From assembly GCF_053078305.1 (NCBI RefSeq), contig NZ_CP166879.1: 64,000 bases of DNA. One strand, given 5' to 3'. The notes under the pieces were generated by a model. It saw nothing but the letters and a program-made list of their open reading frames with translations, was not told where the DNA came from and made no database searches. Positions 34,894 through 64,000 of this stretch are shown here, in pieces. A program made the translations under genes and the position numbers. Every line of letters begins with the position of its first letter. The stretch's first letter is position 1.

Positions 34894-35118
34894 ATGACAC
34901 GCAACGCAACGCAACGCAACGCAACGCAACGCAACGCAACGCAACGCAACGCAACGCAACGCAACGCAACGCAACGCAACGCAACGCAACGCAACGCAAC
35001 GCAACAATATGCTCGCCTGAACTCTCTCCGTCAAGTACCTCTACCTCCGTGCTTTCTGGAGGTACTGTATGAATATACGCAACAATCATCTACCGGGAAC
35101 AGAAACTCTTTTTTCTGA
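34894..35118 (+). CDS. Candidate leader ORF containing the pentanucleotide tract and overlapping the mod start
   Basis: ATG 34894 preceded by GAGG (34885-34888); reads MT(RNATQ)x7 through the repeat and ends at 35118, 50 nt beyond the mod ATG; coding status unproven. Confidence 0.35.
   Translation: MTRNATQRNATQRNATQRNATQRNATQRNATQRNATQQYARLNSLRQVPLPPCFLEVLYEYTQQSSTGNRNSFF
34899..35005 (+). repeat. Perfect pentanucleotide simple-sequence repeat (GCAAC)21
   Basis: 21 uninterrupted GCAAC units at 34901-35005 (tract with partial unit starts 34899), ending 63 bp upstream of the mod ATG. Confidence 0.97.
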
Positions 35119-37105
35119 AACTGAAACTGCGAACAGTAAACAACTTGCTGTTTTGAAAACTAACTTTCCACAGTGTTTCGATAAAAACGGAGCTTTCATT
35201 CAGGAAAAGCTGCTTGAGATCATCAGAGCATCAAATGTTGAAATCTCTAAAGAGTCATACTGCTTAAACTGGCTTGGCAAATCCTATGCTCGCCTGCTGG
35301 CTAACCTACCACCAACGACATTGCTGTCAGAAGATAAAGACCATAACCGACGTGAAGAGAACAAGAACAGTCAAAATCTGTTAATCAAAGGGGATAACCT
35401 TGAGGTATTAAAGCATATGGTTAATGCTTATTCTGAAAAGGTTAAAATGATTTATATCGATCCGCCATATAACACGGGTTCTGATGGGTTCGCCTATAAT
35501 GATGATCGCAAATTTACACCAGAACAGCTTTCTGATCTGGCGGGTATCGATCTTGATGAGGCTAAACGTATACTTGAATTTACCACGAATGGTTCAAGCA
35601 GCCATAGCGCATGGTTAACGTTCATTTATCCTCGTTTATATATTGCTCGTGAGCTTCTACGTGAAGATGGTGTGATATTTATTTCGATTGACGAAAATGA
35701 ATTAAATCAACTTAAAACTATTTGTGATGAAATTTTTGGCGAAGCAAATTTCATAGAAAATATTGTATGGAATAAACGTATCCCTAAAAATGATAAGGGT
35801 ATTGGTAATATCCATGAGTACATCCTTGCTTATGCGAAGAATAACGAAATAAGTAAAGAATTTTTAATGCGGAAAGATGGTATTGATGATGTATATCAGT
35901 TTATTGAAAAGTTAAAAAAGGAAAAGGTGCCATTAGATAAAGCAGAGCAGCAACTCAAAAAATTCTACAGCTCCAACGGATATGATCGTGGAATTACTCT
36001 TTACAACGGTTTGAACGAGGATTATAGGCCATGGGGTAAAATTAATATGAGTTGGCCTAATGCAGATTCATTTGGACCCACGTATGAAGTATTGCACCCT
36101 TTGACTAATAACCCTGTCAAAATCCCAGACAGAGGCTGGCGTTGGAAAGAAGGCACTTTTAATCATATTGCAAAAAGAATAGATGGAAAGTATGCAGATA
36201 TCAAAAAACTACATGATGGTAGCGTTATTTGTGGTGGAATTTGGTTTGCCCGTACAGAAAAAACCCAACCCAGTTCGGTTAAATTTTTAGATGAAGTTGA
36301 AGAGTTTTTACTAAGATCAATTATTTCAACTAAAAGTGATGGTGGTGTTGAGGTTGAAAATCTTTTTGGTGGGAAAGGATATTTCTCCTACCCGAAGCCA
36401 ACAAGTTTAATAAAAACACTATTTGGTTCAGTAAGAACCGAAGATAAAGACATTTATCTTGACTTTTTTGCTGGCTCTGGAACTACAGCTCATGGTATTC
36501 TGGAGTTAAATATTGAAGACGGCAGGAAAAGAAACTTCATCTGTGTTCAATTAGATGAAGAAACAGATAAAAAGAAACAAGCCTATAAAGAAGGGTATAA
36601 ATCCATCTTCAATATAACAAAAGACAGAATTATTAAGGCAGGAAAAAAGCTGAAAAAAGATAATCCTAATTATAATGGAGATTTGGGATTTAAAATATTT
36701 GAAACAGTTCATGATTTTCGAGCGAAAGATGAGTCTGAACTTACGCTTTCTAATCTTAGTTTCTTTGACGATGCTGTATTGACACCAGAGCAGTATGACA
36801 CTCTATTGACGACATGGTGCGTGTATGATGGCAGCTTGCTAACAACACCAATTGAAGATATTGACCTTAATGGCTACAAAGCACACTTGTGCGATGGTCG
36901 GCTATATCTAATTGCGCCTAATTTCACAAGTGAGGCTTTGAAAGCTTTACTTCAAAAGCTGGATGCAGACAAAGACTTTGCCCCTAACAAAGTTGTATTT
37001 TATGGCAGCAACTTCGAAAGTGCGAAACAGATGGAACTCAATGAAGCACTAAAAAGTTATGCTAATAAAAAATCTATTGATTTAGATTTGGTGGTAAGGA
37101 ACTAA
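35069..37105 (+). CDS. mod: Type III restriction-modification methyltransferase Mod (N6-adenine)
   Basis: 678 aa; GGAGG Shine-Dalgarno at 35058-35062; motif IV IYIDPPYNTG, motif I FFAGSGTTAHG; followed 2 bp later by res. Confidence 0.9.
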   Translation: MNIRNNHLPGTETLFSETETANSKQLAVLKTNFPQCFDKNGAFIQEKLLEIIRASNVEISKESYCLNWLGKSYARLLANLPPTTLLSEDKDHNRREENKNSQNLLIKGDNLEVLKHMVNAYSEKVKMIYIDPPYNTGSDGFAYNDDRKFTPEQLSDLAGIDLDEAKRILEFTTNGSSSHSAWLTFIYPRLYIARELLREDGVIFISIDENELNQLKTICDEIFGEANFIENIVWNKRIPKNDKGIGNIHEYILAYAKNNEISKEFLMRKDGIDDVYQFIEKLKKEKVPLDKAEQQLKKFYSSNGYDRGITLYNGLNEDYRPWGKINMSWPNADSFGPTYEVLHPLTNNPVKIPDRGWRWKEGTFNHIAKRIDGKYADIKKLHDGSVICGGIWFARTEKTQPSSVKFLDEVEEFLLRSIISTKSDGGVEVENLFGGKGYFSYPKPTSLIKTLFGSVRTEDKDIYLDFFAGSGTTAHGILELNIEDGRKRNFICVQLDEETDKKKQAYKEGYKSIFNITKDRIIKAGKKLKKDNPNYNGDLGFKIFETVHDFRAKDESELTLSNLSFFDDAVLTPEQYDTLLTTWCVYDGSLLTTPIEDIDLNGYKAHLCDGRLYLIAPNFTSEALKALLQKLDADKDFAPNKVVFYGSNFESAKQMELNEALKSYANKKSIDLDLVVRN

Positions 37106-37107
37106 TC

Positions 37108-40020
37108 ATGTCTAAAGGGTTCACATTCGAAAAAAATTTACCTCATCAAAAGGCTGGCGTTGATTCGGTAATGAATGTCTTTGTATCCGCCATACCTCAT
37201 CAGACGGATCATGTTGCAATTCGCCTGTTAGCTAATCCAGAACTGAATCTATCTGAACAACAATACTACAACAACATAAAAAATGTTCAGGAGTTCAATG
37301 GTATTGAGCACTCAAAAGATAATTACGATGCTAAAAGCAACGTAATTGATGTTTCTATGGAGACAGGTACAGGTAAAACTTATACTTACACCAAAACAAT
37401 TTTTGACCTGAACAAATCATTTGGTATTAACAAATTTATCATCATTGTTCCTACCCTATCGATCAAAGCCGGAACCGTTAACTTTTTAAAAAGCGATGCT
37501 ATAAAAGAACACTTTCGAGATGATTACGAGCGTGAACTAAAGACTTACGTTGTTGAAAGTCAGAAAAGTTCGGGTAAAAATACAAAATCGTATATGCCTC
37601 AAGCTATCCATGATTTTGTTGAAGCAAGTAATTTCAATAAGAAATATATACACATTCTTGTGATCAACTCAGGGATGATTAACTCTAAGTCTTTAACTGA
37701 CACTTATGATGTTGGCTTGCTTGATAATCAGTTTGATACCCCATTTTCTGCACTTAGTGCGATAAAACCATTCATTATCATTGATGAGCCTCATAAATTT
37801 CCTACTGGTAAAAAGACATGGGAACATATTCAAAAATTTAATGCCCAATATATCATCCGCTATGGCGCAACCTTTAGTGAAGGCTATAAGAACTTAGTTT
37901 ATCGTCTTACAGCCGTAGATGCCTTCAATGAAGATCTTGTTAAAGGTATTGATGCATACATTGAGGATATAGTTGGTGATGGTAATGCCAACCTCAAGTT
38001 GGTCAAATCTGACGGAAAAGAAGCTACATTTGAACTGAACGAAAATAATAATAAAAAAATTTTTAAGTTAGCCAAAGGTGAATCACTATCTAAGACGCAT
38101 AGTGCGATCCATGATTTAACTCTTGATGCTTTAAATAAGAATACAGCAGTGTTGAGTAATGGTATTGAGCTAAAAATTGGTAGTTCGATAAACCCCTATT
38201 CTTACGATCAGACACTTGCTGATAACATGATGCGTAAAGCTGTCAAAGAACACTTTAAGTTAGAAAAAGAGTATCTGACACAAAGGCCACGCATAAAACC
38301 TCTTACTCTTTTCTTCATTGATGACATTGAAGGCTATCGTGATGGTAATGATATTGCAGGAAGCCTGAAAACTAAGTTCGAAGAATACGTTTTGGCAGAA
38401 GCAAATGAACTGTTAAAAACAGAGAAAGATGAGTTTTACAGAAACTACCTTGAAAAAACTGTTAAGGATATATCTTCTGTTCATGGTGGTTATTTTTCAA
38501 AAGATAATAGTGATAAAGATGATAAAATTGAGCAGGAAATCAACGAAATCCTTCATGATAAAGAGCTTCTATTGTCTTTAGAAAATCCTCGCCGTTTCAT
38601 TTTCTCTAAATGGACGTTGCGTGAGGGATGGGATAACCCAAATGTCTTTCAGATTTGTAAGCTCCGTTCGAGCGGTAGCACCACATCTAAACTTCAGGAG
38701 GTAGGGCGTGGTTTACGTCTTCCAGTGAATGAATACATGTGCCGTGTGAAAAACCGCGATTTTACTCTCAACTATTATGTTGATTTTACGGAAAAAGATT
38801 TTGTTGATTCTCTTGTAAAAGAGGTTAATGATAGTTCTTTCAAAGAAACTGTTCCAGGTAAGTTTACTCAAGAACTTAAGGATAAAATCTTATCTCAGTA
38901 TCCTGAGCTTTCATCCAGAACACTCATGAATGAGATCTTTGATGCTGAAATTATTGATGATAATGAAAACTTCAAAGATTCCGATGCCTATAGCCGTTTA
39001 AAAGCAAAATATCCGGCTGCATTCCCTACCGGGGTGAAACCAACAAAAATAAAAAAAGCCACGGATGGAAAAAAGCGTACTAAAATGCGTATTGGTAAGT
39101 TCAGTGAGTTGAAAGAACTATGGGATTTGATCAATCAAAAAGTAGTAATTGAGTATAAAATAAATAGTGAAAATGAATTCTTATCCATTTTCAAATCATT
39201 CATGATTGAAGAAACAGATAGATTTACTAAATCAGGTGTTCATACTCGCATTGATAGAATTTATATTCATAATGATACGGCGATGTCGAAAAGTATCGTC
39301 AGTGACGATGATAACTTTGCTAAACTAAACACAATGAGCTATCGGGAATTTCTTGATAACTTATCACAAACTATTTTTGCTAAACACGATACCTTACATA
39401 AGGTTTTTTGTGATATAAAAGACACTATCAATATCACCGACTACCTGAACATTCAGACAATCAGAAAGATTAAATCTGGGTTTAGCAAGTATTTGTTGAA
39501 CAATTCATTTAACAAATTCAGCCTTGGATATAATGTAATTTCAGGCTCAATTCATCCTACAAAATTCACTAATGCAGACGGTAATCACCTGCATGAGGTA
39601 TTATCAGGTGATCTTGGAGTATTACAGGATAATACAAAAGCCCCCCTAGACTCTTATCTTTTTGAAGAAGTTTTTTATGATTCAGAGCTTGAAAGACTCA
39701 ATATAACAGACGGAGAGATCCACTCTGTTGCTGTTTTTACAAAGATACCGAAAAACTCAATTAAAATTCCAGTGGCAGGTGGATACACATATTCTCCTGA
39801 CTTTGCTTATGTTGTAAAAACAACAAAGGGTGACTACCTTAACTTTATTATTGAAACAAAAAATGTCGAAGGTAAAGAAAGTTTACGTAAAGAAGAACTG
39901 GATAAAATAAAGCATGCACAAAAACTTTTCGAACAGGTAAGTAAATCTGTAAAAGTAACTTTTATAACTCAATTCTCAGGTGACAGAATCCATGATCTGA
40001 TAAAAAATGTGATTCAGTAA
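37108..40020 (+). CDS. res: Type III restriction enzyme Res subunit (SF2 helicase-like ATPase/nuclease)
   Basis: 970 aa; Walker A TGTGKTYT, DEAH-like IIIDEPHKF; tightly coupled to mod. Confidence 0.9.
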   Translation: MSKGFTFEKNLPHQKAGVDSVMNVFVSAIPHQTDHVAIRLLANPELNLSEQQYYNNIKNVQEFNGIEHSKDNYDAKSNVIDVSMETGTGKTYTYTKTIFDLNKSFGINKFIIIVPTLSIKAGTVNFLKSDAIKEHFRDDYERELKTYVVESQKSSGKNTKSYMPQAIHDFVEASNFNKKYIHILVINSGMINSKSLTDTYDVGLLDNQFDTPFSALSAIKPFIIIDEPHKFPTGKKTWEHIQKFNAQYIIRYGATFSEGYKNLVYRLTAVDAFNEDLVKGIDAYIEDIVGDGNANLKLVKSDGKEATFELNENNNKKIFKLAKGESLSKTHSAIHDLTLDALNKNTAVLSNGIELKIGSSINPYSYDQTLADNMMRKAVKEHFKLEKEYLTQRPRIKPLTLFFIDDIEGYRDGNDIAGSLKTKFEEYVLAEANELLKTEKDEFYRNYLEKTVKDISSVHGGYFSKDNSDKDDKIEQEINEILHDKELLLSLENPRRFIFSKWTLREGWDNPNVFQICKLRSSGSTTSKLQEVGRGLRLPVNEYMCRVKNRDFTLNYYVDFTEKDFVDSLVKEVNDSSFKETVPGKFTQELKDKILSQYPELSSRTLMNEIFDAEIIDDNENFKDSDAYSRLKAKYPAAFPTGVKPTKIKKATDGKKRTKMRIGKFSELKELWDLINQKVVIEYKINSENEFLSIFKSFMIEETDRFTKSGVHTRIDRIYIHNDTAMSKSIVSDDDNFAKLNTMSYREFLDNLSQTIFAKHDTLHKVFCDIKDTINITDYLNIQTIRKIKSGFSKYLLNNSFNKFSLGYNVISGSIHPTKFTNADGNHLHEVLSGDLGVLQDNTKAPLDSYLFEEVFYDSELERLNITDGEIHSVAVFTKIPKNSIKIPVAGGYTYSPDFAYVVKTTKGDYLNFIIETKNVEGKESLRKEELDKIKHAQKLFEQVSKSVKVTFITQFSGDRIHDLIKNVIQ

Positions 40021-53620: not shown

Positions 53621-53640
53621 ATTTTAGAAAAGGGAAATTT

Positions 53641-55689
53641 ATGAAGAACAAATATATCATTGCTCCGGGCATTGCCGTGATATGTTCTGCAGTCATATCA
53701 TCAGGTTATGCCAGTTCTGATAAAAAAGAAGATACGCTTGTTGTTACTGCCTCCGGCTTCACTCAGCAACTCAGAAATGCACCGGCCAGTGTTTCAGTCA
53801 TTACTTCAGAGCAACTGCAAAAAAAACCGGTTTCAGACCTGGTCGATGCGGTAAAAGATGTTGAAGGGATTAGTATCACCGGTGGGAATGAAAAACCGGA
53901 TATCAGTATACGTGGGTTAAGTGGCGATTATACATTGATTCTGGTCGATGGACGACGTCAGAGTGGTCGGGAATCCAGACCAAACGGCAGCGGCGGTTTT
54001 GAAGCCGGATTTATCCCTCCTGTGGAAGCAATTGAGCGTATTGAAGTTATACGTGGCCCTATGTCTTCCCTGTATGGTTCCGATGCTATCGGAGGAGTTA
54101 TTAATATCATAACCAAACCTGTTAATAACCAGACATGGGATGGCGTACTTGGGCTTGGGGGAATTATTCAGGAACATGGGAAATTTGGTAACTCAACCAC
54201 GAATGACTTCTACCTGTCAGGCCCATTGGTTAAGGATAAACTTGGTCTTCAGTTATATGGAGGAATGAACTATCGCAAGGAAGATAGTATCTCTCAGGGA
54301 ACACCAGCAAAAGATAATAAGAATATAACGGCAACACTCCAGTTTACTCCGACTGAAAGCCAGAAGTTTGTTTTTGAATACGGAAAAAATAACCAGGAAC
54401 ATACATTAACACCTGGTGATTCTCTTGATGCCTGGACTATGCGGGGAAATCTTAAACAACCAAACAGTAAAAGAGAAACACATAACTCACGTAGTCACTG
54501 GGTAGCAGCATGGAATGCCCAGGGCGAAATACTGCATCCTGAAATTGCTGTTTATCAGGAGAAAGTTATTCGTGAGGTTAAATCTGGTAAAAAAGATAAA
54601 TATAATCATTGGGATCTTAATTACGAGTCAAGAAAACCGGAAATAACCAACACGATCATAGATGCAAAAGTGACGGCATTTCTGCCGGAAAATGTGCTGA
54701 CCATCGGAGGTCAATTTCAGCATGCAGAACTCCGTGATGACTCAGCCACAGGTAAAAAAACGACAGAAACACAGTCTGTTTCAGTTAAACAGAAAGCTGT
54801 TTTTATAGAAAATGAATATGCTGCAACGGATTCTCTCGCCCTGACTGGAGGGCTGCGCCTCGATAACCATGAAATCTATGGCAGTTACTGGAATCCAAGA
54901 TTGTATGCTGTTTATAACCTGACCGATAATCTCACTCTCAAAGGAGGGATCGCAAAAGCATTTCGGGCCCCTTCGATTCGTGAGGTCAGTCCTGGATTTG
55001 GAACACTGACGCAGGGTGGTGCCTCTATTATGTATGGAAACAGGGACCTGAAACCGGAGACCAGTGTAACCGAAGAGATCGGTATTATTTATAATAATGA
55101 CAGTGGTTTTTCAGCAAGCGCGACTCTGTTTAATACAGATTTTAAAAATAAGCTGACCAGTTACGATATAGGCACAAAAGATCCAGTCACTGGGCTAAAC
55201 ACTTTTATTTATGATAATGTGGGTGAGGCAAATATCAGAGGTGTGGAGCTTGCAACTCAGATTCCTGTGTATGATAAATGGCGTGTATCTGCAAACTATA
55301 CATTCACTGACTCCCGTCGAGAAAGCGATGACGAAAGTCTCAATGGCAAGTCGCTGAAAGGGGAACCTCTGGAAAGAACTCCCAGACATGCAGCCAATGC
55401 AAAACTGGAATGGGATTACACTCAGGATATTACATTTTATTCATCTCTGAATTATACAGGAAAACAAATCTGGGCAGCACAAAGAAATGGTGCCAAGGTT
55501 CCCCGTGTTCGTAATGGATTCACTTCTATGGATATTGGTATGAATTACCAGTTCCTGCCAGGCACGCTGATTAATTTTGCCGTACTTAACGTCACAGACA
55601 GAAAGAGCGAAGATATCGATACCATTGATGGTAACTGGCAGGTCGATGAAGGACGTCGTTACTGGGCTAATGTAAGAATATCCTTCTGA
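53641..55689 (+). CDS. TonB-dependent outer-membrane siderophore receptor (IrgA/Iha/CirA-like)
   Basis: Start MKNKYIIAPGIAVICSA (ATG 53641, AAGGGAAA upstream); TonB box DTLVVTAS; plug motifs IRGPMSSLYGSDAIGGVINIIT; C-terminal aromatic residue (RYWANVRISF). Confidence 0.9.
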   Translation: MKNKYIIAPGIAVICSAVISSGYASSDKKEDTLVVTASGFTQQLRNAPASVSVITSEQLQKKPVSDLVDAVKDVEGISITGGNEKPDISIRGLSGDYTLILVDGRRQSGRESRPNGSGGFEAGFIPPVEAIERIEVIRGPMSSLYGSDAIGGVINIITKPVNNQTWDGVLGLGGIIQEHGKFGNSTTNDFYLSGPLVKDKLGLQLYGGMNYRKEDSISQGTPAKDNKNITATLQFTPTESQKFVFEYGKNNQEHTLTPGDSLDAWTMRGNLKQPNSKRETHNSRSHWVAAWNAQGEILHPEIAVYQEKVIREVKSGKKDKYNHWDLNYESRKPEITNTIIDAKVTAFLPENVLTIGGQFQHAELRDDSATGKKTTETQSVSVKQKAVFIENEYAATDSLALTGGLRLDNHEIYGSYWNPRLYAVYNLTDNLTLKGGIAKAFRAPSIREVSPGFGTLTQGGASIMYGNRDLKPETSVTEEIGIIYNNDSGFSASATLFNTDFKNKLTSYDIGTKDPVTGLNTFIYDNVGEANIRGVELATQIPVYDKWRVSANYTFTDSRRESDDESLNGKSLKGEPLERTPRHAANAKLEWDYTQDITFYSSLNYTGKQIWAAQRNGAKVPRVRNGFTSMDIGMNYQFLPGTLINFAVLNVTDRKSEDIDTIDGNWQVDEGRRYWANVRISF

Positions 55690-55702
55690 GAGAATATAGA
55701 TA

Positions 55703-55725
55703 ACCTGAGGCCGTGCGCCTCAGGT
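55703..55725 (+). terminator. Weak hairpin after the receptor gene (no clear U tract)
   Basis: ACCTGAGGC-cgtgc-GCCTCAGGT. Confidence 0.3.
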
Positions 55726-56362
55726 ACCAGTATAGTAATCAGTAACGTCAGCTTCCAGGTTGTAATGCTTTTAATTTTGATAAAAATAAACTTAATAAAT
55801 TACATTTGTTAAATATTGATAATTTTAATTTGGTTTTATTACTCCAGTTATACTCACACTCTATCTTTACACAATTCATCACCATTACACCTCCATAGCC
55901 TGTTGATTTAAAAGATTTAATTTCCTGTGAAACAATCAGGCCTGTATGAACCTGATTATACCACAGAATCTTTTAAGTTATTTAAATTTAACTCTCGGGC
56001 TTTTCTGTCAGTAAAATCAGAAAAATTGCAGGATTTCGTTTTTTTTGCTGCGAAGTGAAATGTATCTCATTTTTACTGCCTTCGCCAGTGCGTCAGGCAA
56101 TGGCAGGTAGTGTACCTGCATTCTGCTGTAACGCGTAATGTCGGGTAGTTTACTTAAACTTAATATGTTTTATGTTTGCATTATTATAAATCACTTTATT
56201 GCCTTTTGTCTGCTTTTTAATGGTTCCCGTTTTGTTCACTTCTGGCTTTATAAAAAATGGATGCTGAAGAAATGAAGGTAGTCCACCTTACATAATATTC
56301 ATGCATGATTTTTATGCTATTCCGACTGAGTGGAAGAAAATAAAGGAGAAAAGAGGGTATAT

Positions 56363-59300
56363 ATGAACCTCAGAAAAAAACATATCTGTATAGCCATATC
56401 ACTTGTTCTTAATCCGGCATCCATATCACAGGTCAGTGCTCAGGCAGATACAAATAAGTTAACTGTTGAAGTTGATGAAACCAGCCTTGGCCATGATGTC
56501 TATGGCGATGACTGGAAGAGCATTGAAATAGGTACAACGAAATTTACAGCAAAAGATGAATCAAAGGGAATTAATTTCGACCATAAATCACCGGTGGCTG
56601 AAGGACGTAACTCTATCGCGATTGGTACCAGTGCAGAGGCTGGAGGTGACATTAGCACGAAGGAAGGTTTGTACACAGGCGAGTCTATTGCGATAGGAGC
56701 GAAAACGAAAGCAACTAAAGAACAGTCAATTGCAATAGGTGGCGATACCAAAGCTACCGGATGGGGGGCTATTGTTATTGGTGGGGATGATTTAACTCCT
56801 TTGCATGGTAAGACTTATGGTCGGGAAAAAATAGAGAATGGCTATCTTGCATCGGAAGCGCAGGGGGATGGCAGTATTGCGCTGGGCAGCAGAACTTTTG
56901 CTAAAGGCGAATTGTCAGTATCGCTTGGTTCGGTGAGTTCTGCTGAGGGGATGGCCTCGAATGCAATTGGAGCCACGGCGGAAGCTAAAGGGGATATGGC
57001 GACTGCGGTTGGTTTTAATGCGCTGGCTAATGCCGGTAATGCTCTGGCCGTTGGTAGTCAGTCCTCTGCAAATAAAAACGATGCTCTTGCTGTTGGTTCA
57101 GAGGCAAATGCCGCTCAGAATGAAACGGTTGCCCTGGGGCATGGAGCAACCGTTACTGTCGCAAAGGGGAACGTGTCCATCGGCGCTGACTCCAGGGATA
57201 AGCAGGCACAAAAAGTAACAGAGGCTAAGGTCAGAACTAAAAGAGGCGCGGAAGTCACATATAGTGGCTTTGCCGGAAATAACGCAGCATCAGTAGTATC
57301 TGTTGGTGATGCGGGTAAAGAGCGTCAGATTGTTAACGTGGGGGCGGGTGCGATTTCTGACACAAGTACAGATGCCATTAACGGTAGTCAGTTATATGCG
57401 ATAGCGAAGACACTGAAAGATGACCTTGATGCCATTAATCCGACGTGGACGCTAAAGGATGATAAGGGAGGTTCTGCGACTATTAATGGTGGGAAGGATA
57501 ATAAGAATGGTAACACTTTAACTGTTAAAGGTGATGGAGATATTGCAGTTACTGTTAATGATAAAGGAATGACGATTGACGGAACAACGCTGAAAAATGA
57601 AATAAAAAATGATGCCATCAAAATTAAAGGTGGAGATGGTAAGACGCTGACGAAGAGTCTTGGTGACAATGTCGAAATCACTGGCAAAGGCCCAATAAAA
57701 ACCCAGGTGGCTGGAGATAAACTGGAGATTTCAGCAGAGACAGCTTCGTTGCCTGTAAATGGTGGTAACGGGAAGATTACAGTAAACAATGGTGATGGCG
57801 ATAAACTTGTTACTGCGAAAAACATTGCTGATGCCATAAACCAGTCTGGCTGGAAAATTAAAGCGGATAAAGATACCGGTGGTGTTATCGAGGGAAATGG
57901 TCAGGGAACAGAAACACTGATAAAACCCGGTGATATGGTTACGCTGAAAGCCGGTAAAAATCTCAGCGTGAAACAAAGTGGTGGTGATTTTACATTCTCT
58001 GTTATTGATACTCCGTCATTCAGCAGTGTTCAGCTGAATGGAAAAGGAAATAACGGAAGTGTAACGCTCTCATCCGAAGGTAATAAGCTGACATTGTCAG
58101 GCGGTAATGGTGCCGGACAAAATGGTGTTGTTATCAGTGGTGTGGCAAGTGGACTGGAAGGTAAGGAACTTTCGACGTTAACGAATACTGATAAAGAGAT
58201 GAAAAATGCCGCCAGTGTTGCAGACCTGAAAACGGCAATTGATGGTGTGTCCTCCAGTATGCAGGGTGCAGGTTTCGCACTGAAAGACTCTGATGATAAG
58301 GAAGTGAAACAGTCTCTTGGGCAGGCGATTAAAGTATCCGGGGACAGCAATATCACCACCACAGCCATCACCAATGGGGATAAGGGGTTAAAAATATCCC
58401 TGAATAATGACCTGAGCGTTGGGAGCAATAATACTCCCGGCAGCATCAAAGTTAACGGGGCTGATGGTAAGGAGGCTGTGAGTCTGAATGGTCAGGATGG
58501 CACGATTAAACTGACATCCTCGCCTGCTGCGGGTGGAAAGTCTGCGTCAGCAACCATTGCTGTTAATGCAGGCAAAGGTGGATTAACAGATGCTGCCGGT
58601 ACCACGAAGACACGTCTGACTTATACCCCGGATGGAAAATCACCGGCAGAAGAGCTGGCGACCATGAATGACGGTCTTTCTTTTGAGGGTGATGACGGAA
58701 AGGTTATTCATAAAAAACTGAATGAAAAACTGACCATCAAAGGTGGTGCAGAGAAGAATGCTGAAGTGACTGACGGCAATATCCGGGTTGATAATGATAA
58801 TGGCGGGCTTCTGGTGAGGATGACCAGAAACCTCCGTGATTTGGCCAGCGCGGTTTTTGGTACAGGTGGGCAGATAACAACAGTTAATGATAAAGGCATC
58901 ACAATCACAACACCTGCTGCGGGCGGTGGTCAGGGGAATACGGTTTCCCTTACCGGCTCCGGCCTGAATAACGGTGGAAATCAGATAACCAGTGTGGCCA
59001 GTGGTCTGAACGGCACTGCGCTTGCTGACGCCGGTGGAGATGTTCTGAATAATGCGGCCAATATCGGTGACCTGAAAAATGCTCTCCGTGACAGCAGTGC
59101 GGCACTGGTGAATACCGGCTTTGGTCTGCAGGCGGATGACGGAAGCAAGGTGAACACGTCTCTCGGGAAGCATATCACGGTTGGTGGTGACGGGCAGAAT
59201 ATCAGCACGACTGTTCAGAACGGGAGCCTGACGGTCAGACTCGCTGATAACATTCGCCTGGGAGATGACGGCAGTGTTTCTGTCGGCGGAACCCGGATGG

Positions 59301-60694
59301 ATAAAAACGGACTGACCATCAAGGATGGCCCGTCAGTGACTGTGAACGGTATTGATGCGGCTGGCCGGGTTATTTCCGGCGTGAAAGACGGGGTGAATGA
59401 CCAGGACGCCGTTAACGTTTCACAACTGAACCGTGAAATCAGTCAGGCAACGGCAGCAACGACCTGGGCACTGAAGACTGAATCCGGTGATGAGGCTGTT
59501 GCTGTTTCCTCCCAGACGGTTGAAGTCCGTCACGGACAGAATACCCGGGTTTCAGCCATCAGTAAGGATGATAAGGGAAATTACAGCTATGAGATTGATG
59601 TGACGGGGATTCCGGTGGAGTACACCGACAGCCAGGGGAACCCGCTTGTCAATATTGGTGGTCGTTTTTACACACAGACCGAAGATGCTGCGACCGGGAA
59701 ACTGACAATGACGCCGGCTGAGCCGGCCCGTGTCAGAATAAGCAGTGAGCAGCCTCTTGTTCTGACAAATGTGGCGGCCGGAAATGTGTCACCGGTATCC
59801 ACGGATGCGGTTAACGGGAGCCAGCTGGCATCTGCAGCCAGAATTGCTGGCGGTGATAATGTTGTCTGGAAAGACGGAAAAGCAGCGCTGGCTCCTGACA
59901 CCTTCAGTGAGCTGACAACTGCAGGTGGCGGTAAGACAACGGTGAATGGTGGTGTACATAAAACACCGGATAATGTGGCTGATGCAGTGAATATGCTGAA
60001 CCGTGAAGGCACGAAGTATTTTAAAGCTGCCTCTTCCGGTCAGGCAGCAAAAGCGGAAGGGCGTGACAGTATTGCTGTCGGACAGGGGGCCGTTTCCCGG
60101 GGACAAAACAGCATTGCCATGGGTAATGGTGCTGAAGTCACGCGTCAGGCTGCTGCCGGCTCTGTTGCAGTTGGCAGCCATGCCCGTGCTGGCCGCGCGA
60201 ATACCGGGACTTATGCCCTGAACGGTCAGGCTGTTGCGGGACGTACCGGAAGTGATACTGCGGTGGTTTCTTTTGGTCAGCCGGGACAGGAGCGTCAGCT
60301 GCAGTCAGTGGCACCGGGTGTGTTGTCTGCGAATTCAACGGATGCCGTCAATGGCAGTCAGTTGCATGCAACTAACCGTCAGGTTGCCGGAAATACACAG
60401 GCGATAAACACCCTCGGGAATAAATTCAGTCAGCTGAGCTACCGGGTGGAAGAGCTTAACCGGGATATCCGTGGTGTTGGTGCATCGGCTGCGGCCATGA
60501 GCGGGATACCTCAGGCCTATCTGCCGGGTAAAAGTCTGATGGGGCTGGGTGTCGGTGGATATGGTGGTGAAAGCGCCATTGCAATAGGGGTGTCCCGAAT
60601 CTCCGATAACGGTAAGATGATAATGAAACTGAATGCAGGTCAGAACACCCGGGGTAATTTCTCCGTCGGTGCCGGTGTGGGCTGGCAGTGGTAA
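56363..60694 (+). CDS. Large trimeric autotransporter adhesin (UpaG/EhaG-like)
   Basis: Start MNLRKKHICIAISLVLNPASISQVSAQA (ATG 56363); many head/neck repeats (SIAIGTSAEA, AVGFNALANAGNALAVGSQSSA, NAIGATAEA); C-terminal YadA anchor ending GAGVGWQW. Confidence 0.85.
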   Translation: MNLRKKHICIAISLVLNPASISQVSAQADTNKLTVEVDETSLGHDVYGDDWKSIEIGTTKFTAKDESKGINFDHKSPVAEGRNSIAIGTSAEAGGDISTKEGLYTGESIAIGAKTKATKEQSIAIGGDTKATGWGAIVIGGDDLTPLHGKTYGREKIENGYLASEAQGDGSIALGSRTFAKGELSVSLGSVSSAEGMASNAIGATAEAKGDMATAVGFNALANAGNALAVGSQSSANKNDALAVGSEANAAQNETVALGHGATVTVAKGNVSIGADSRDKQAQKVTEAKVRTKRGAEVTYSGFAGNNAASVVSVGDAGKERQIVNVGAGAISDTSTDAINGSQLYAIAKTLKDDLDAINPTWTLKDDKGGSATINGGKDNKNGNTLTVKGDGDIAVTVNDKGMTIDGTTLKNEIKNDAIKIKGGDGKTLTKSLGDNVEITGKGPIKTQVAGDKLEISAETASLPVNGGNGKITVNNGDGDKLVTAKNIADAINQSGWKIKADKDTGGVIEGNGQGTETLIKPGDMVTLKAGKNLSVKQSGGDFTFSVIDTPSFSSVQLNGKGNNGSVTLSSEGNKLTLSGGNGAGQNGVVISGVASGLEGKELSTLTNTDKEMKNAASVADLKTAIDGVSSSMQGAGFALKDSDDKEVKQSLGQAIKVSGDSNITTTAITNGDKGLKISLNNDLSVGSNNTPGSIKVNGADGKEAVSLNGQDGTIKLTSSPAAGGKSASATIAVNAGKGGLTDAAGTTKTRLTYTPDGKSPAEELATMNDGLSFEGDDGKVIHKKLNEKLTIKGGAEKNAEVTDGNIRVDNDNGGLLVRMTRNLRDLASAVFGTGGQITTVNDKGITITTPAAGGGQGNTVSLTGSGLNNGGNQITSVASGLNGTALADAGGDVLNNAANIGDLKNALRDSSAALVNTGFGLQADDGSKVNTSLGKHITVGGDGQNISTTVQNGSLTVRLADNIRLGDDGSVSVGGTRMDKNGLTIKDGPSVTVNGIDAAGRVISGVKDGVNDQDAVNVSQLNREISQATAATTWALKTESGDEAVAVSSQTVEVRHGQNTRVSAISKDDKGNYSYEIDVTGIPVEYTDSQGNPLVNIGGRFYTQTEDAATGKLTMTPAEPARVRISSEQPLVLTNVAAGNVSPVSTDAVNGSQLASAARIAGGDNVVWKDGKAALAPDTFSELTTAGGGKTTVNGGVHKTPDNVADAVNMLNREGTKYFKAASSGQAAKAEGRDSIAVGQGAVSRGQNSIAMGNGAEVTRQAAAGSVAVGSHARAGRANTGTYALNGQAVAGRTGSDTAVVSFGQPGQERQLQSVAPGVLSANSTDAVNGSQLHATNRQVAGNTQAINTLGNKFSQLSYRVEELNRDIRGVGASAAAMSGIPQAYLPGKSLMGLGVGGYGGESAIAIGVSRISDNGKMIMKLNAGQNTRGNFSVGAGVGWQW

Positions 60695-60718
60695 CAGGGA
60701 AAAGCAAGGAGAAATGTA

Positions 60719-61498
60719 ATGTTATTTAGTCGAATGATGATGACGGGTGTGCTGTCCCTGATGCTTGCAGGATGTGGAAATCTGAGTCATGTCACGGATG
60801 AAGGAACGACGGAAGAAGTGGTATGGCCTTCTCCGGAGAAGGTGATGTTTAATCATGACGGAACACAGAAAGGTTCGTGGCCACTGCCAGAAAAGTTACG
60901 TCAGATAAAGGCGGGTATGAATAAGGACCAGATTTATCAGCTGGCGGGGAGACCACACTTTGCTGAAGGGATGTCTGGTGTAAGGGAATGGGATTACCTG
61001 TTCAACTTTACCGGACCGGAGGGGGATTATACCTGCCAGTACAAGATACTGTTTGACCGGAACATGGATGCCCGCTCTTTCTACTGGAAGCCGGAAAACT
61101 GTCTGCCGGAGGCAGAGACAGCAGAATACAGGGAGTCAGTCCCCGGTGATATATTATTTGATTTTGATTCATGGACTCTGACAGAGAGGGGGCGTGATGC
61201 GCTTTCCCGTGTGGCAGAGAAGTTTCAGGCGGGTCATGTTGTCGGGGTGAAGATAGAAGGATTTACGGACCATCTTGGCGGGCAGGCGTATAACCGGCTC
61301 CTGTCAGAGAAACGGGCGGAATCAGTCAGGGGGTGGTTTATTGCCCGGGGATTCAGGGCTGAAAGGATACATGCAACGGGCCGTGGATATGATGCACCAG
61401 TGGTGTTCTGCCCGGATGTGGAGGGCGAAGCACTGAAGGAATGTCTGCGCCCCAACCGCAGGGTTGAAATAACCGGGGAAACATCAGTGACTGATTAA
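60719..61498 (+). CDS. OmpA-C-domain lipoprotein (peptidoglycan-binding), co-oriented 24 bp downstream of the adhesin
   Basis: Lipobox LMLAGC; C-terminal OmpA-like domain (ILFDFDSWTL, FTDHLGGQAYNRLLSEKRAESV, RPNRRVEI). Confidence 0.8.
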   Translation: MLFSRMMMTGVLSLMLAGCGNLSHVTDEGTTEEVVWPSPEKVMFNHDGTQKGSWPLPEKLRQIKAGMNKDQIYQLAGRPHFAEGMSGVREWDYLFNFTGPEGDYTCQYKILFDRNMDARSFYWKPENCLPEAETAEYRESVPGDILFDFDSWTLTERGRDALSRVAEKFQAGHVVGVKIEGFTDHLGGQAYNRLLSEKRAESVRGWFIARGFRAERIHATGRGYDAPVVFCPDVEGEALKECLRPNRRVEITGETSVTD

Positions 61499-61522
61499 CA
61501 ATAAAGTGCCCCGGGAACTAAT

Positions 61523-61555
61523 GCCAGTCAGTTCAGCAACTGACTGGCTCTTTTT
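61523..61555 (+). terminator. Rho-independent terminator after the adhesin-lipoprotein pair
   Basis: GCCAGTCAGTT-cagc-AACTGACTGGC followed by TCTTTTT. Confidence 0.7.
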
Positions 61556-61612
61556 CGGGGCTGTGGGGTATTTCCAGGGAGCCTGTTTAGGAATCTGTGT
61601 AAATGCCTTTTC

Positions 61613-62134
61613 TCAGAAGTGACCGTCCAGGCGGTCACCGAACTCGATAATAAAGCGGCTCATTGCCATTCGCCGGTTTTGCCATTCTACAACCTGCTCC
61701 ATCACGGCATCGGTGACCTTTGATATCAGTGCCGGTGAAACATCTGCGTCATACAGCTCTTTGAACGCAGCAGCGATCTCACGGGTGGTCATCCCTTTGG
61801 CATACAACGAGAAGATCTGGTTATCCATCCCAGTAATACGGGTCTGATTTTTCTTTACCAGTTGTGGTTCGAAGGTACCGTCACGATCGCGCGGAGTACG
61901 CAGTTCCAGTGGACCGTCGCCTGTGATAACGGTCTTTGTGGAATAACCGTTGCGGGAGTTAGTTCCCGGTTTGGACTGATTTTTCTCATACCCAAGATGG
62001 TGTGTCATCTCTGCATTGAGAGCGGCTTCAACGCTGATCTTTTTCAGTAGACGGTCAAACTGGCTGAGGTCTTCAGGGGTTTTGAGGTTTTTGGCCAGTT
62101 CGTTAGCCAGAGCCTGTAACTGTTTTTCGTCCAT
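61613..62134 (-). pseudogene. Truncated IS256-family (mutator-type) transposase, N-terminal fragment only
   Basis: 173 aa matching an IS256-family N-terminus (NGYSTKTVITGDGPLELRTPRDRDGTFEPQLVKKNQTRI, YAKGMTTREI) then terminating; the catalytic DDE region is absent. Confidence 0.7.
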
Positions 62135-62182
62135 AAATTAACCTTCATTTGATGCTTGATTGAACATATCAAAATCAGGCAA

Positions 62183-63560
62183 TTACACAAATCTATGTAC
62201 AGGCTCTTTCCAAGGCCTCTCCTTTACCACTCTCGGGAAGCCCCTTTCCCTTCTTGTCGGTAATTTCACAAGTTGTCCCATACTTGCAAGATCGCGCATC
62301 AGCCCCGGTATACGTCCCGGTGAAGCGCCCTGCAATGTCATCACCATTCCGCATGATTCTGAGAAACTCAGTTGATTCGGCCAGTAACCTTTCAGATGTT
62401 CCGCCATTTTAATCATCTGACATCTTACCAGATTATAAGCCAGTAAGACACCCCACAGCTCTTGCTCCACAAGCTCCGGCTTTTTACAGCGTCAGCCTGC
62501 TCAGTTGCATCGTCTGTTTTATCTCCCTGTATCCCAGTTCAATTTCCCGGCGATGACTGTACAGATCCGCCATTTCTCCCCCGGGGAAGCGCATGGCGTC
62601 CGTCATCGACGTCAGCAGATGGCAGACTTCTCCTTTGCGCGTCACGGTCAGCAGGCGGGCTGTCACCTCATTTCCCAGTCCCGGCCACTTTTTTCGTGCC
62701 TGCGGGCTGGTTTTCAGCTTCACCAGATGATCGCCTTTACCCAGTTTTCTGATCTCTTCATATTGCGCTCCCTTTCTGAGAGGGATCATCCAGTGGCGGT
62801 GTTCTCCCACCAGGCTCCAGGCATTTAACAGTCCCAGTGAGTAATAACCTTTATCCATTAACGTCAGGGTGTTATCGCCGGTTTGTTCTATAAGTTGCTC
62901 AGCAAGCTCATTTTCGCTGTTCTTCATCGTGCCGAAGGCTCAGCCGTAAGCAGATGGCTGGTCAGTTCCATCTGGCAGACTATTTTGACCTGCGGGTAGA
63001 GCGCCGGGTTGCCGGCATGTATCTGGCGGGGGAAGGCTGCATCGTTCTCTGGTGTATCCGGTGTGCGCCAGAACATACCATCGATGGCCAGCAGGGTCAG
63101 GCCGCATCAGTGCGGATGCGGCGTGGCGTTATGCCAGAGCTGCGCTGTTTTCGTGAACACGCGGCGGACAGCCTCACTTCCCAGGTGCTGGCGGGCCTGA
63201 ATAACGGCACTGGGGGCAACGAAGGGGCGATTGCCGGCAGCATGATGTCCAGGCGATTCACAATCTGGTGAAGGGGCTCTTTACGCTCAAGCGCCATGCC
63301 AACAATACACCAGACCATCATTTCGAGGGGAAGACGGCGCTTGCGTAGCGTTACCGTACCTGATTCGGCAAGGCAACGAGAGATGAGTTCGGGGTCGAGG
63401 TAATCCCCCAGAGAAGCCAGTGGGTTACGCAGAGAATCGTAACGGGATACCAGATCAAGGGCCTGTCCAGTGTGCATAAAAAATCCGGAAACGAGTGAGC
63501 GTTTCCGGATTCTTACACAACCACTGGATCGGTCAACTGATCCTTAACCGATCGGCATTA
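62183..63560 (-). mobile_element. IS4 insertion sequence copy with a disrupted transposase
   Basis: Transposase split across 63097..63477 (MHTGQALDLVSRYDSLRNPL), 62484..62927 (DKGYYSLGLLNAW) and 62183..62470; IS4-type terminal sequence CCTTAACCGATCGGCATTA at 63542-63560; the other end not identified. Confidence 0.75.
63478..63510 (-). terminator. Terminator-like hairpin inside the IS4 end, upstream of its transposase start
   Basis: ATCCGGAAACG-agtgag-CGTTTCCGGAT with an A run on the plus strand (T run on minus). Confidence 0.45.
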
Positions 63561-63590: not shown

Positions 63591-64000
63591 TTAGACGTTG
63601 ACGCCGTGCTGGGAAGCAAGCGCTGACAGGCCACCGGAAAAACCCTGACCGACAGCTTTAAACTTCCACTCAGCGCCATGGCGATACAGTTCACCGAAGA
63701 CCATTGCGGTTTCAGTTGAGGCGTCTTCAGACAGATCGAAACGGGCAATTTCCGCGCCGTTATCGTTGTTGTAAACGCGCATGAAGCTGTTGCTCACCAT
63801 GCCGAAATTTTGTTTACGCGCTTCTGCATCATAGATGGTAACGGCAAATACCAGTTTTTTGACGTCAACTGAGACTTTTGCCAGATCGATTTTAATTTGC
63901 TCATCGTCACCATCGCCTTCACCGGTACGGTTGTCACCCTGGTGCTCTACTGCGCCATCAGGGCTGGTTTTATTATTGAAGAAAATGAAATGGGCATCTG
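63591..64000 (-). CDS. TerD-family tellurium-resistance/stress protein, 3' portion; 5' end beyond window
   Basis: Frame open to the window edge; C-terminus [83 protein letters not shown] is characteristic of TerD/TerE/TerZ. Confidence 0.8.

Follow-up and report, generated by a model that had tools for sequence, protein, structure and literature searches.

In Acinetobacter sp. Tol 5, the gene tpgA is located downstream of ataA, which encodes a trimeric autotransporter adhesin (TAA), and is co-transcribed with it (PMC8151025, PMC12523085). For this taa-tpgA cassette, PMC12523085 and PMC8151025 cite Ishikawa et al. 2016. TpgA has two binding partners, AtaA and peptidoglycan (PMC8151025, PMC12523085), and in its absence less AtaA is displayed on the cell surface (PMC8151025). 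In the 9VNJ crystal structure, reported in 2025, three TpgA N-domains sit on the periplasmic face of the AtaA barrel in a 3:3 complex; the contacts comprise two salt bridges (K64-D3601 and D65-K3576, TpgA residue first) and a hydrophobic tip (L80/F81), and the TpgA substitutions K64A and F81A weaken the complex (PMC12523085). Steered molecular-dynamics simulations suggest that approximately twice the force is required for extraction of the anchor when TpgA-N is bound (PMC13082670). TpgA-like sequences group in a cluster of their own, of which about 80% carry an OmpA_C domain and 91% are located downstream of a taa gene, and the genera represented are spread across the Proteobacteria, Escherichia included (PMC12523085). 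In the Gamma- and Betaproteobacteria, 644 TpgA homologues adjoin TAA genes (bioRxiv 10.64898/2026.01.22.700529). Here, we compare with this system a TAA gene and the lipoprotein gene that follows it in a 64,000-nt stretch of Escherichia coli DNA (contig NZ_CP166879.1 of assembly GCF_053078305.1; hereafter, the window).

The two genes form an intact cassette in an E. coli genomic island. The first (56363..60694, + strand) is an open reading frame (ORF) encoding a TAA of 1443 aa, and the second (60719..61498, + strand) is an ORF encoding a TpgA-like lipoprotein of 259 aa. An earlier note on this DNA, made from the sequence alone, had given the coordinates and lengths of both ORFs correctly, as well as the 24 bp that separate them (60695-60718). 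It had also suggested that the lipoprotein is a dedicated anchoring or biogenesis partner that is co-transcribed with the adhesin. This suggestion is in agreement with the experiments on the homologous AtaA-TpgA pair, and homology, contact residues and gene order all argue for it at this locus. We consider it probable that the pair is a taa-tpgA-type cassette, in which a TAA is supplied together with a dedicated periplasmic clamp. The same note had regarded an OmpA-domain partner located downstream as a different arrangement from those already described, and on this point it was mistaken, as the taa-tpgA cassette had been published. The cassette opens no new question, as the literature already covers the arrangement, the complex and how widely it is distributed. 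What it adds is modest: a variant predicted to be lipidated, a serine at a contact shown to be important in Acinetobacter, a module consisting of the anchor and the N-domain, and a large clade of stand-alone PlpD proteins. The cassette is an E. coli example of the TpgA system in a genetically tractable host, its genes are carried on virulence plasmids and islands of Shiga-toxin-producing E. coli (STEC), and it provides a candidate function for genes that RefSeq labels merely as "YadA-like family protein", "OmpA family protein" or, in some cases, "BamE".

The 1443-aa protein can be identified as a TAA because Pfam recognizes head, stalk and anchor regions in it and because its C-terminus matches Hia anchor structures. 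The YadA_head repeats are found at aa 79-262 and 1226-1274, and four significant copies of the YadA_stalk/neck motifs are found at aa 322-358, 1004-1034, 1134-1163 and 1316-1354. The YadA-type membrane anchor (aa 1383-1443; 60509..60691, + strand; Pfam YadA_anchor, E-value: 2.6e-19) contributes four strands per monomer to a 12-stranded barrel, and the protein terminates in GVGWQW, an aromatic ending of the kind expected for such anchors. When the last 130 residues were searched against the PDB, they matched the Hia anchor structures (E-value: 9e-25) and also 9VNJ_A, the AtaA-TM chain. The NCBIfam models for EmaA, Ata and BimA each match part of the protein, and its passenger shows similarity to that of EmaA. 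A "YadA-like family protein" encoded on STEC plasmid p_STEC435_1 is 98% identical. The N-terminus carries a Sec signal peptide of about 28 aa; the start codon is the ATG at 56363, while an alternative in-frame GTG at 56330 would lengthen the protein by 11 aa.

The lipoprotein begins with a signal peptide (60719..60775, + strand, from the translation) that ends in the lipobox L-A-G-C19 and conforms to the pattern [LVI][ASTG][GA]C (MLFSRMMMTGVLSLMLAG immediately before C19). Cys19 is invariant across 56 homologues. In a first family alignment, C19, G20, N21, L22 and S23 were all invariant, and in a deeper alignment C19, G20 and S23 remained so while N21 and L22 were nearly invariant. It is predicted from these features that the protein is lipidated at Cys19. 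The Lol pathway sorts lipoproteins according to the residue at position +2. With Gly at this position, and thus no inner-membrane retention signal, the protein would be expected to be sorted to the outer membrane.

Two domains follow the signal peptide. A BamE-like N-domain (60878..61102, + strand) was identified by Pfam (BamE, aa 54-115, E-value: 5e-14), by a PDB match and in an AlphaFold2 (AF2) model, while an OmpA-like peptidoglycan-binding domain spans aa 143-252 (61145..61474, + strand; Pfam OmpA, aa 146-228, E-value: 4e-16). The latter is matched by OmpA C-domains of the PDB (E-value: 3e-18), carries a Cys231/Cys242 pair like that of enterobacterial OmpA and contains the motif TD...YN..LS..RA, in which D184 and R199 lie and which is invariant among the homologues. 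The architecture predicted from these matches, a BamE-like N-domain joined to an OmpA-like C-domain, is that published for TpgA. In NCBIfam, the best match is the TpgA model NF047726 (119.4 bits), with residues 4-252 aligned to model positions 5-267 of 268. When the N-terminal 137 residues were compared with the PDB, the sole chain recovered at an E-value ≤ 0.01 was 9VNJ_B, the TpgA N-domain (E-value: 1.6e-11), and none of the many BamE structures in that database was matched at this threshold. In BLASTP, an Acinetobacter TpgA-like protein scored 60.8 bits, compared with 30.4 bits for E. coli BamE (an approximate BamE sequence was used). In the AF2 model, which was built with 56 homologues and has a mean predicted local distance difference test score of 82.8, the N-domain consists of two helices (residues 57-64 and 69-76) and three strands (residues 90-99, 102-112 and 117-123), the same alpha-alpha-beta-beta-beta order as reported for TpgA-N. 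Using Foldseek, the modelled C-domain superimposes on the Salmonella OmpA C-domain (4RHA) with a template modelling score of 0.89 and a root mean square deviation of 1.4 Å. Because the best 50 PDB matches to the whole model are all OmpA-type domains, the whole-model search is silent on the N-domain.

The contact residues of AtaA and TpgA were mapped onto the E. coli pair by counting along HMMER alignments. TpgA K64/D65 correspond to K69/D70 of the lipoprotein, AtaA K3576 corresponds to the Lys of "LPGK" in the TAA anchor and AtaA D3601 corresponds to the Asp of "SDNGK" in the same anchor. Each of these is conserved, and both partners of both salt bridges are present in the adhesin-lipoprotein pair. 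At the tip, L80/F81 of TpgA correspond to M85/S86, with the hydrophobic residue kept and the aromatic residue lost; other E. coli alleles have Leu-Phe, Met-Phe or Ile-Ala here, and other homologues have mostly Leu-Phe or Leu-Tyr. The K/D pair is near-invariant (84 of 87 homologues). The anchor Asp is found in all 26 of the 26 TAA anchors that precede a homologous lipoprotein, where the Lys position is occupied by Lys or His. This Asp is not conserved in YadA, BadA and UpaG, TAAs that do not belong to such cassettes (PMC12523085). Hia, which keeps the TpgA-contacting Asp without an adjacent tpgA, has been noted as an exception (PMC12523085).

The conservation of the cassette among E. coli alleles is uneven. 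The last 95 aa of the TAA anchor are 88-99% identical and the BamE-like domain of the lipoprotein is 81-99% identical, in comparison with 11-50% for the TAA head, 7-57% for the linker between the lipoprotein domains and 54-78% for the OmpA domain. The best-conserved and jointly inherited parts are thus the predicted contact partners, a pattern consistent with a co-adapted interface, although tight physical linkage alone would favour it as well.

The two genes also co-occur in other genomes: three divergent E. coli alleles show the linkage, as do 22 of 80 species-representative loci. The cassette type found in the window is rare, being present in 26 of 5426 complete E. coli genomes (at least 80% query coverage). 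It is carried by STEC strains on both ehx plasmids and chromosomes, and the insertion sequence (IS) elements that bound it differ, while the 24-nt spacer is constant. E. coli lipoprotein alleles that are 76% and 62% identical to that of the window are located 24 and 20 nt behind a TAA gene, respectively. In the wider survey, one genome per species was used (80 loci) and TAA anchors were sought with a small hidden Markov model (HMM) built in-house. At the 22 linked loci, a TAA-anchor ORF ends 16-206 nt upstream of the lipoprotein gene on the same strand, and for none of the 80 loci did the anchor HMM detect a TAA anchor at any other place within 5 kb. This adjacency is far beyond chance; a rough estimate that assumes at most 10 TAA genes among approximately 2000 genes predicts well under one such case. 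In a neighbour-joining tree (200 bootstraps), the E. coli proteins and TAA-linked Alcaligenaceae copies form a group in which every member is TAA-linked (99.5% support); a second all-linked clade comprises Pasteurellaceae proteins (83.5% support), and the bulk of the Pasteurellaceae clade consists of stand-alone proteins. Based on this grouping, the E. coli lipoprotein belongs to a TAA-linked branch.

Some species carry more than one TAA-lipoprotein cassette. Three were found in each of Testudinibacter aquarius, Spirabiliibacterium pneumoniae and Pasteurella testudinis, and two in each of Spirabiliibacterium mucosae and Testudinibacter sp. TR-2022. In P. testudinis, all three fall in a region of about 30 kb on a single contig, a layout suggestive of tandem expansion of the entire two-gene unit.

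Several observations weigh against a dedicated clamp. The NCBIfam score of the lipoprotein is far below the equivalog cutoff of NF047726 (350 bits), and for this reason the protein is not considered an orthologue of Acinetobacter TpgA; its identity to the Acinetobacter TpgA-like protein is only about 30% over the aligned N-terminal 120 residues. The equivalent of F81, the residue whose replacement by alanine weakened the AtaA-TpgA complex, is Ser in the window allele, and the native terminator region of the cassette has been replaced by the end of an IS element. Furthermore, 58 of the 80 homologue loci are stand-alone, and because of this the fold alone does not imply a TAA partner. The closest relatives outside E. 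coli are the PlpD/Plp4 lipoproteins of the Pasteurellaceae (42-50% identity), most of which are not TAA-linked. In Mannheimia haemolytica and Actinobacillus pleuropneumoniae, the PlpD/Plp4 genes follow recJ/dsbC, a housekeeping context, and no TAA was found within 8 kb of them. A homologue from Pelistega (Alcaligenaceae) is likewise stand-alone, being located after dsbA with no TAA nearby.

Taken together, the housekeeping context of PlpD/Plp4, the Pelistega copy and the other stand-alone loci could indicate that the lipoprotein is a general tether between the outer membrane and peptidoglycan, comparable to Pal, YiaD or PlpD/Plp4, which has hitch-hiked on a mobile island and makes no specific contact with the adhesin. 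The OmpA domain by itself accounts for many of the database matches, and in the stand-alone PlpD/Plp4 proteins the K/D pair of TpgA is retained, as is its tip (Leu-Tyr or Leu-Phe), from which it follows that these motifs are not diagnostic of linkage to a TAA. We nevertheless regard a general tether as unlikely. In every E. coli allele examined, a TAA gene ends 20-24 nt upstream of the lipoprotein gene, regardless of replicon and flanking IS, and the E. coli clade groups exclusively with TAA-linked copies. The anchor and the BamE-like domain are conserved jointly across the gene junction while the OmpA domain drifts, and the salt-bridge Asp, which YadA, BadA and UpaG do not conserve, is present in every cognate anchor. 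In addition, the general envelope tethers of E. coli already include Pal, OmpA, Lpp and YiaD.

A somewhat less probable explanation, and one that we also consider unlikely, is that the lipoprotein is mainly a BamE-like assembly factor that would act transiently with the β-barrel assembly machinery (BAM) during insertion or trimerization of the adhesin barrel instead of clamping it permanently. The Pfam BamE domain is in keeping with such a role, as is the RefSeq annotation of some copies as "outer membrane protein assembly factor BamE"; the surface display of AtaA drops without TpgA, and the literature still terms TpgA a helper protein for secretion. The AtaA-TpgA complex is, however, stable enough to be purified and crystallized as A3B3, and TpgA is reported not to be crucial for membrane insertion. 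At the E-value threshold used, the N-domain matches TpgA-N and none of the BamE chains, and a transient chaperone would have no need of a peptidoglycan-binding domain. It is very improbable that the pair is instead a decaying remnant on an IS-ridden island, with a partnership that no longer functions in the window strain. The change of the aromatic contact residue to Ser, the rearrangement of the 3' end of the lipoprotein gene and of the terminator beside IS4 and IS256 debris, and the annotation of both genes as broken in plasmid pSTEC17_183-a would each fit with decay, but both ORFs are full-length and intact in the window, residues 1-253 of the lipoprotein are identical to those of plasmid and chromosomal copies, and the altered tail lies past the end of the OmpA domain. 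Ser86 is common to the three 98%-similar copies compared, and the many frameshifts in the pSTEC17_183-a assembly suggest sequencing errors.

If the pair is a taa-tpgA-type cassette, as we think probable, a mechanism can be proposed by analogy with AtaA-TpgA. Both genes would be transcribed into a single mRNA from a promoter within the AT-rich DNA that precedes 56363. The adhesin would be exported by Sec, and its C-terminal 60-95 residues would trimerize to form a 12-stranded outer-membrane barrel that displays the passenger. The lipoprotein, lipidated at Cys19, would be sorted to the inner leaflet of the outer membrane, where its BamE-like N-domain would dock on the periplasmic rim of the adhesin barrel in three copies per trimer. 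Docking is predicted to involve salt bridges between K69 and the Asp of "SDNGK" and between D70 and the Lys of "PGK", together with a small hydrophobic tip formed by M85/S86. The OmpA-like C-domain would bind peptidoglycan non-covalently via D184 and R199. With its anchor bolted to the cell wall in this way, more of the adhesin might be kept on the surface and it might be harder to pull out under shear. While gene order, domain content, homology to TpgA, conservation of the contact residues and recurrent linkage are direct observations, we infer the complex, peptidoglycan binding, lipidation and phenotype at the E. coli locus from the homologous system.

A more detailed version of this proposal, which we put forward only tentatively, is that the E. 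coli lipoprotein represents a lipidated sub-type of TpgA. In this sub-type the adhesin would be held at three points (the outer membrane via the acyl chain, the barrel rim and peptidoglycan) and the aromatic contact would be relaxed; the anchor and the BamE-like domain would be inherited together as one module, while heads and OmpA domains would be swapped by recombination. The stand-alone PlpD/Plp4 proteins of the Pasteurellaceae could then be clamps that act in trans on TAAs whose genes lie elsewhere. If so, such proteins would account for the retention of the TpgA-contacting Asp in Hia, which lacks an adjacent tpgA.

The AtaA-TpgA pair of Acinetobacter sp. Tol 5 and the Ata-TpgA pair of A. 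baumannii resemble the E. coli cassette in that the TAA gene directly precedes the partner gene on the same strand, and in that the partner combines a BamE/SmpA-OmlA-like N-domain with an OmpA_C-like peptidoglycan-binding domain; as set out above, the E. coli pair has counterparts of both K64/D65 in the partner and K3576/D3601 in the anchor. The two systems differ in several respects. AtaA is 3630 aa in length, substantially larger than the 1443-aa E. coli adhesin, and the E. coli anchor is closer to that of Hia than to that of AtaA. The E. coli lipoprotein has a lipobox with Cys19, whereas the recovered N-termini of Acinetobacter TpgA-like proteins have type-I signal peptides (the sequences compared are fragments of at most 119 aa, which is enough to judge the lipobox), and TpgA has been treated as a soluble periplasmic protein (PMC13082670). 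Unlike AtaA-TpgA, the E. coli cassette is located on IS-flanked islands and plasmids of STEC.

The PlpD/Plp4 lipoproteins, whose names come from sequence sources for Mannheimia, Pasteurella, Avibacterium and Aggregatibacter, are similar to the E. coli lipoprotein over its full length at the level of identity given above, and share with it the lipobox, the CGNLS start, the two-domain layout and the Cys pairs. Some, although a minority, also follow a TAA gene directly, for example those of Aggregatibacter segnis (where the homologue sits behind an EmaA-like TAA), Testudinibacter, Spirabiliibacterium and Pasteurella testudinis. In contrast to the E. coli gene, most are single-copy and stand-alone in the housekeeping context after recJ/dsbC, and the proteins carry a C-terminal AG..GPAPLY tail that is not found in the E. 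coli lipoprotein. No TAA-related function is attached to PlpD/Plp4 in the sources found.

Another accessory lipoprotein, SadB of Salmonella, is similar in that its gene adjoins that of a TAA (SadA) and in that it improves surface display. SadB is encoded upstream, however, and is a trimeric inner-membrane lipoprotein without a BamE or OmpA domain; no stable complex with SadA was detected (PMC8151025). The E. coli lipoprotein gene lies downstream of its TAA gene, and its product shows no similarity to SadB, with BamE and OmpA being the only domains found by Pfam. It does not belong to the SadB type. Among the other envelope proteins that share one of its domains, BamE has the N-domain fold alone and Pal, OmpA, YiaD and YfiB have the peptidoglycan-binding domain alone. 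None of these five has both domains and none is TAA-linked.

The region between ireA and the adhesin gene (55690..56362, + strand) is AT-rich in a composition profile (36-37% G+C) and contains several weak σ70-like sites according to a consensus scan; it is presumed to be the promoter and regulatory region of the cassette. On the + strand, the same type of scan, which is not transcript evidence, detected nothing promoter-like from 59053 up to the lipoprotein start codon (60719) and nothing terminator-like from 59118 to 60826. The 24-nt spacer (60695..60718, + strand; from sequence, scan and fold) contains the Shine-Dalgarno sequence AAGGAG at 60707-60712. RNA spanning the junction (60650-60760) is predicted to fold more stably than shuffled sequences (-37.3 kcal/mol, z = -3.55), with hairpins in the last adhesin codons and a stem around the beginning of the lipoprotein gene, and it is not followed by a T-run. 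This fold could affect translational coupling or could be incidental.

A strong terminator was reported after the lipoprotein gene in the earlier note. The hairpin and T-run (61523-61548) are real, and the region folds at -34.8 kcal/mol (z = -6.7), but they lie inside the left end of an IS4 element and are not the cassette's own. Based on megablast and on alignment to the IS4 of strain SCU-172, this left end occupies 61519..61579 and begins with the inverted repeat TAATGCCAGTCAGTT, and a 171-nt query across the hairpin matched IS4 ends in more than 3000 E. coli genomes by megablast. The IS4 hairpin may nonetheless stop the cassette transcript. In IS-free copies of the cassette, a canonical terminator (CCCCGGAATGTCCGGGGCTTTTTT) is found about 12 nt past the stop codon, and because this native terminator is at the matching position, the prediction that the transcriptional unit ends after the lipoprotein gene survives.

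Homology to other E. coli copies of the cassette breaks off at 61477. The 41 nt that follow (61478..61518, + strand; from alignments) are lineage-specific and comprise the last 6 codons, the stop codon and 20 nt beyond; the identical sequence is found in strain JNEC-KY171. As a result, the lipoprotein ends in ITGETSVTD in the window, compared with ITGQSVR or ITGQRVR in other E. coli copies. The flank immediately outside the IS4 end, GCCCCGGGAA, resembles the left arm of the native terminator. An 11-13-bp target duplication was sought at the other IS4 end (63560), as would be expected had IS4 inserted into the loop of the native terminator, and none was found there. In the RNA fold, the flank GCCCCGGGAA pairs with TTTTTCGGGGC, which is internal to IS4. 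A similar flank, CCCTGGGGA, precedes the IS4 of strain SCU-172, and the resemblance may reflect a target preference of IS4.

The IS4 copy as a whole spans 61519-63560, with its transposase on the - strand in ORF pieces at 62183-63477. A fragment of an IS256-family transposase gene (ORF 61613-62134) interrupts the element after its first 61 nt, and a full IS256 is present at the corresponding place in strain JNEC-KY171. Comparison with that strain also showed that the adhesin is mosaic (window positions 56363-58200 compared): the head is diverged at about aa 90-600, whereas there is near-identity over aa 600-1443. The lipoprotein gene likewise has a 3' end of the JNEC-KY171 type, although the adhesin as a whole is 98% identical to the p_STEC435_1 protein. 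These patterns suggest recombination within the cassette.

On plasmid pSTEC17_183-a, RefSeq marks the adhesin gene as frameshifted and splits the lipoprotein into two coding sequences, "outer membrane protein assembly factor BamE" and "OmpA family protein". The breakage is probably due to sequencing error because the assembly contains many other frameshifts, including one in ehxC. For the same reason, the joint breakage of the two genes was considered and rejected as evidence of functional coupling. The split does illustrate how the TpgA-type identity of the protein can be hidden by annotation.

The window is considered to be part of an integrative genomic island because it encodes type III restriction-modification functions and because genes for ArdC, DUF1281 and an integrase are annotated in matching E. 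coli islands. The type III endonuclease gene is located at 37108-40020 (NCBIfam equivalog, 1073 bits), and the 678-aa ORF that precedes it (35069-37105) may encode the methyltransferase. Directly upstream of the cassette lies ireA (53638-55689), which encodes the TonB-dependent siderophore receptor IreA (NCBIfam equivalog, 1514 bits). When the literature on ireA and trimeric autotransporters was searched, no paper on this locus was found, as judged by title and abstract. This gene accompanies the cassette in the chromosomal copies examined (STEC1590 and JNEC-KY171), while in the two ehx-plasmid copies examined ireA is absent and an IS66 fragment precedes the adhesin gene. On the other side of the IS4 copy, TerD-family tellurite-resistance genes begin at 63591 on the - strand.

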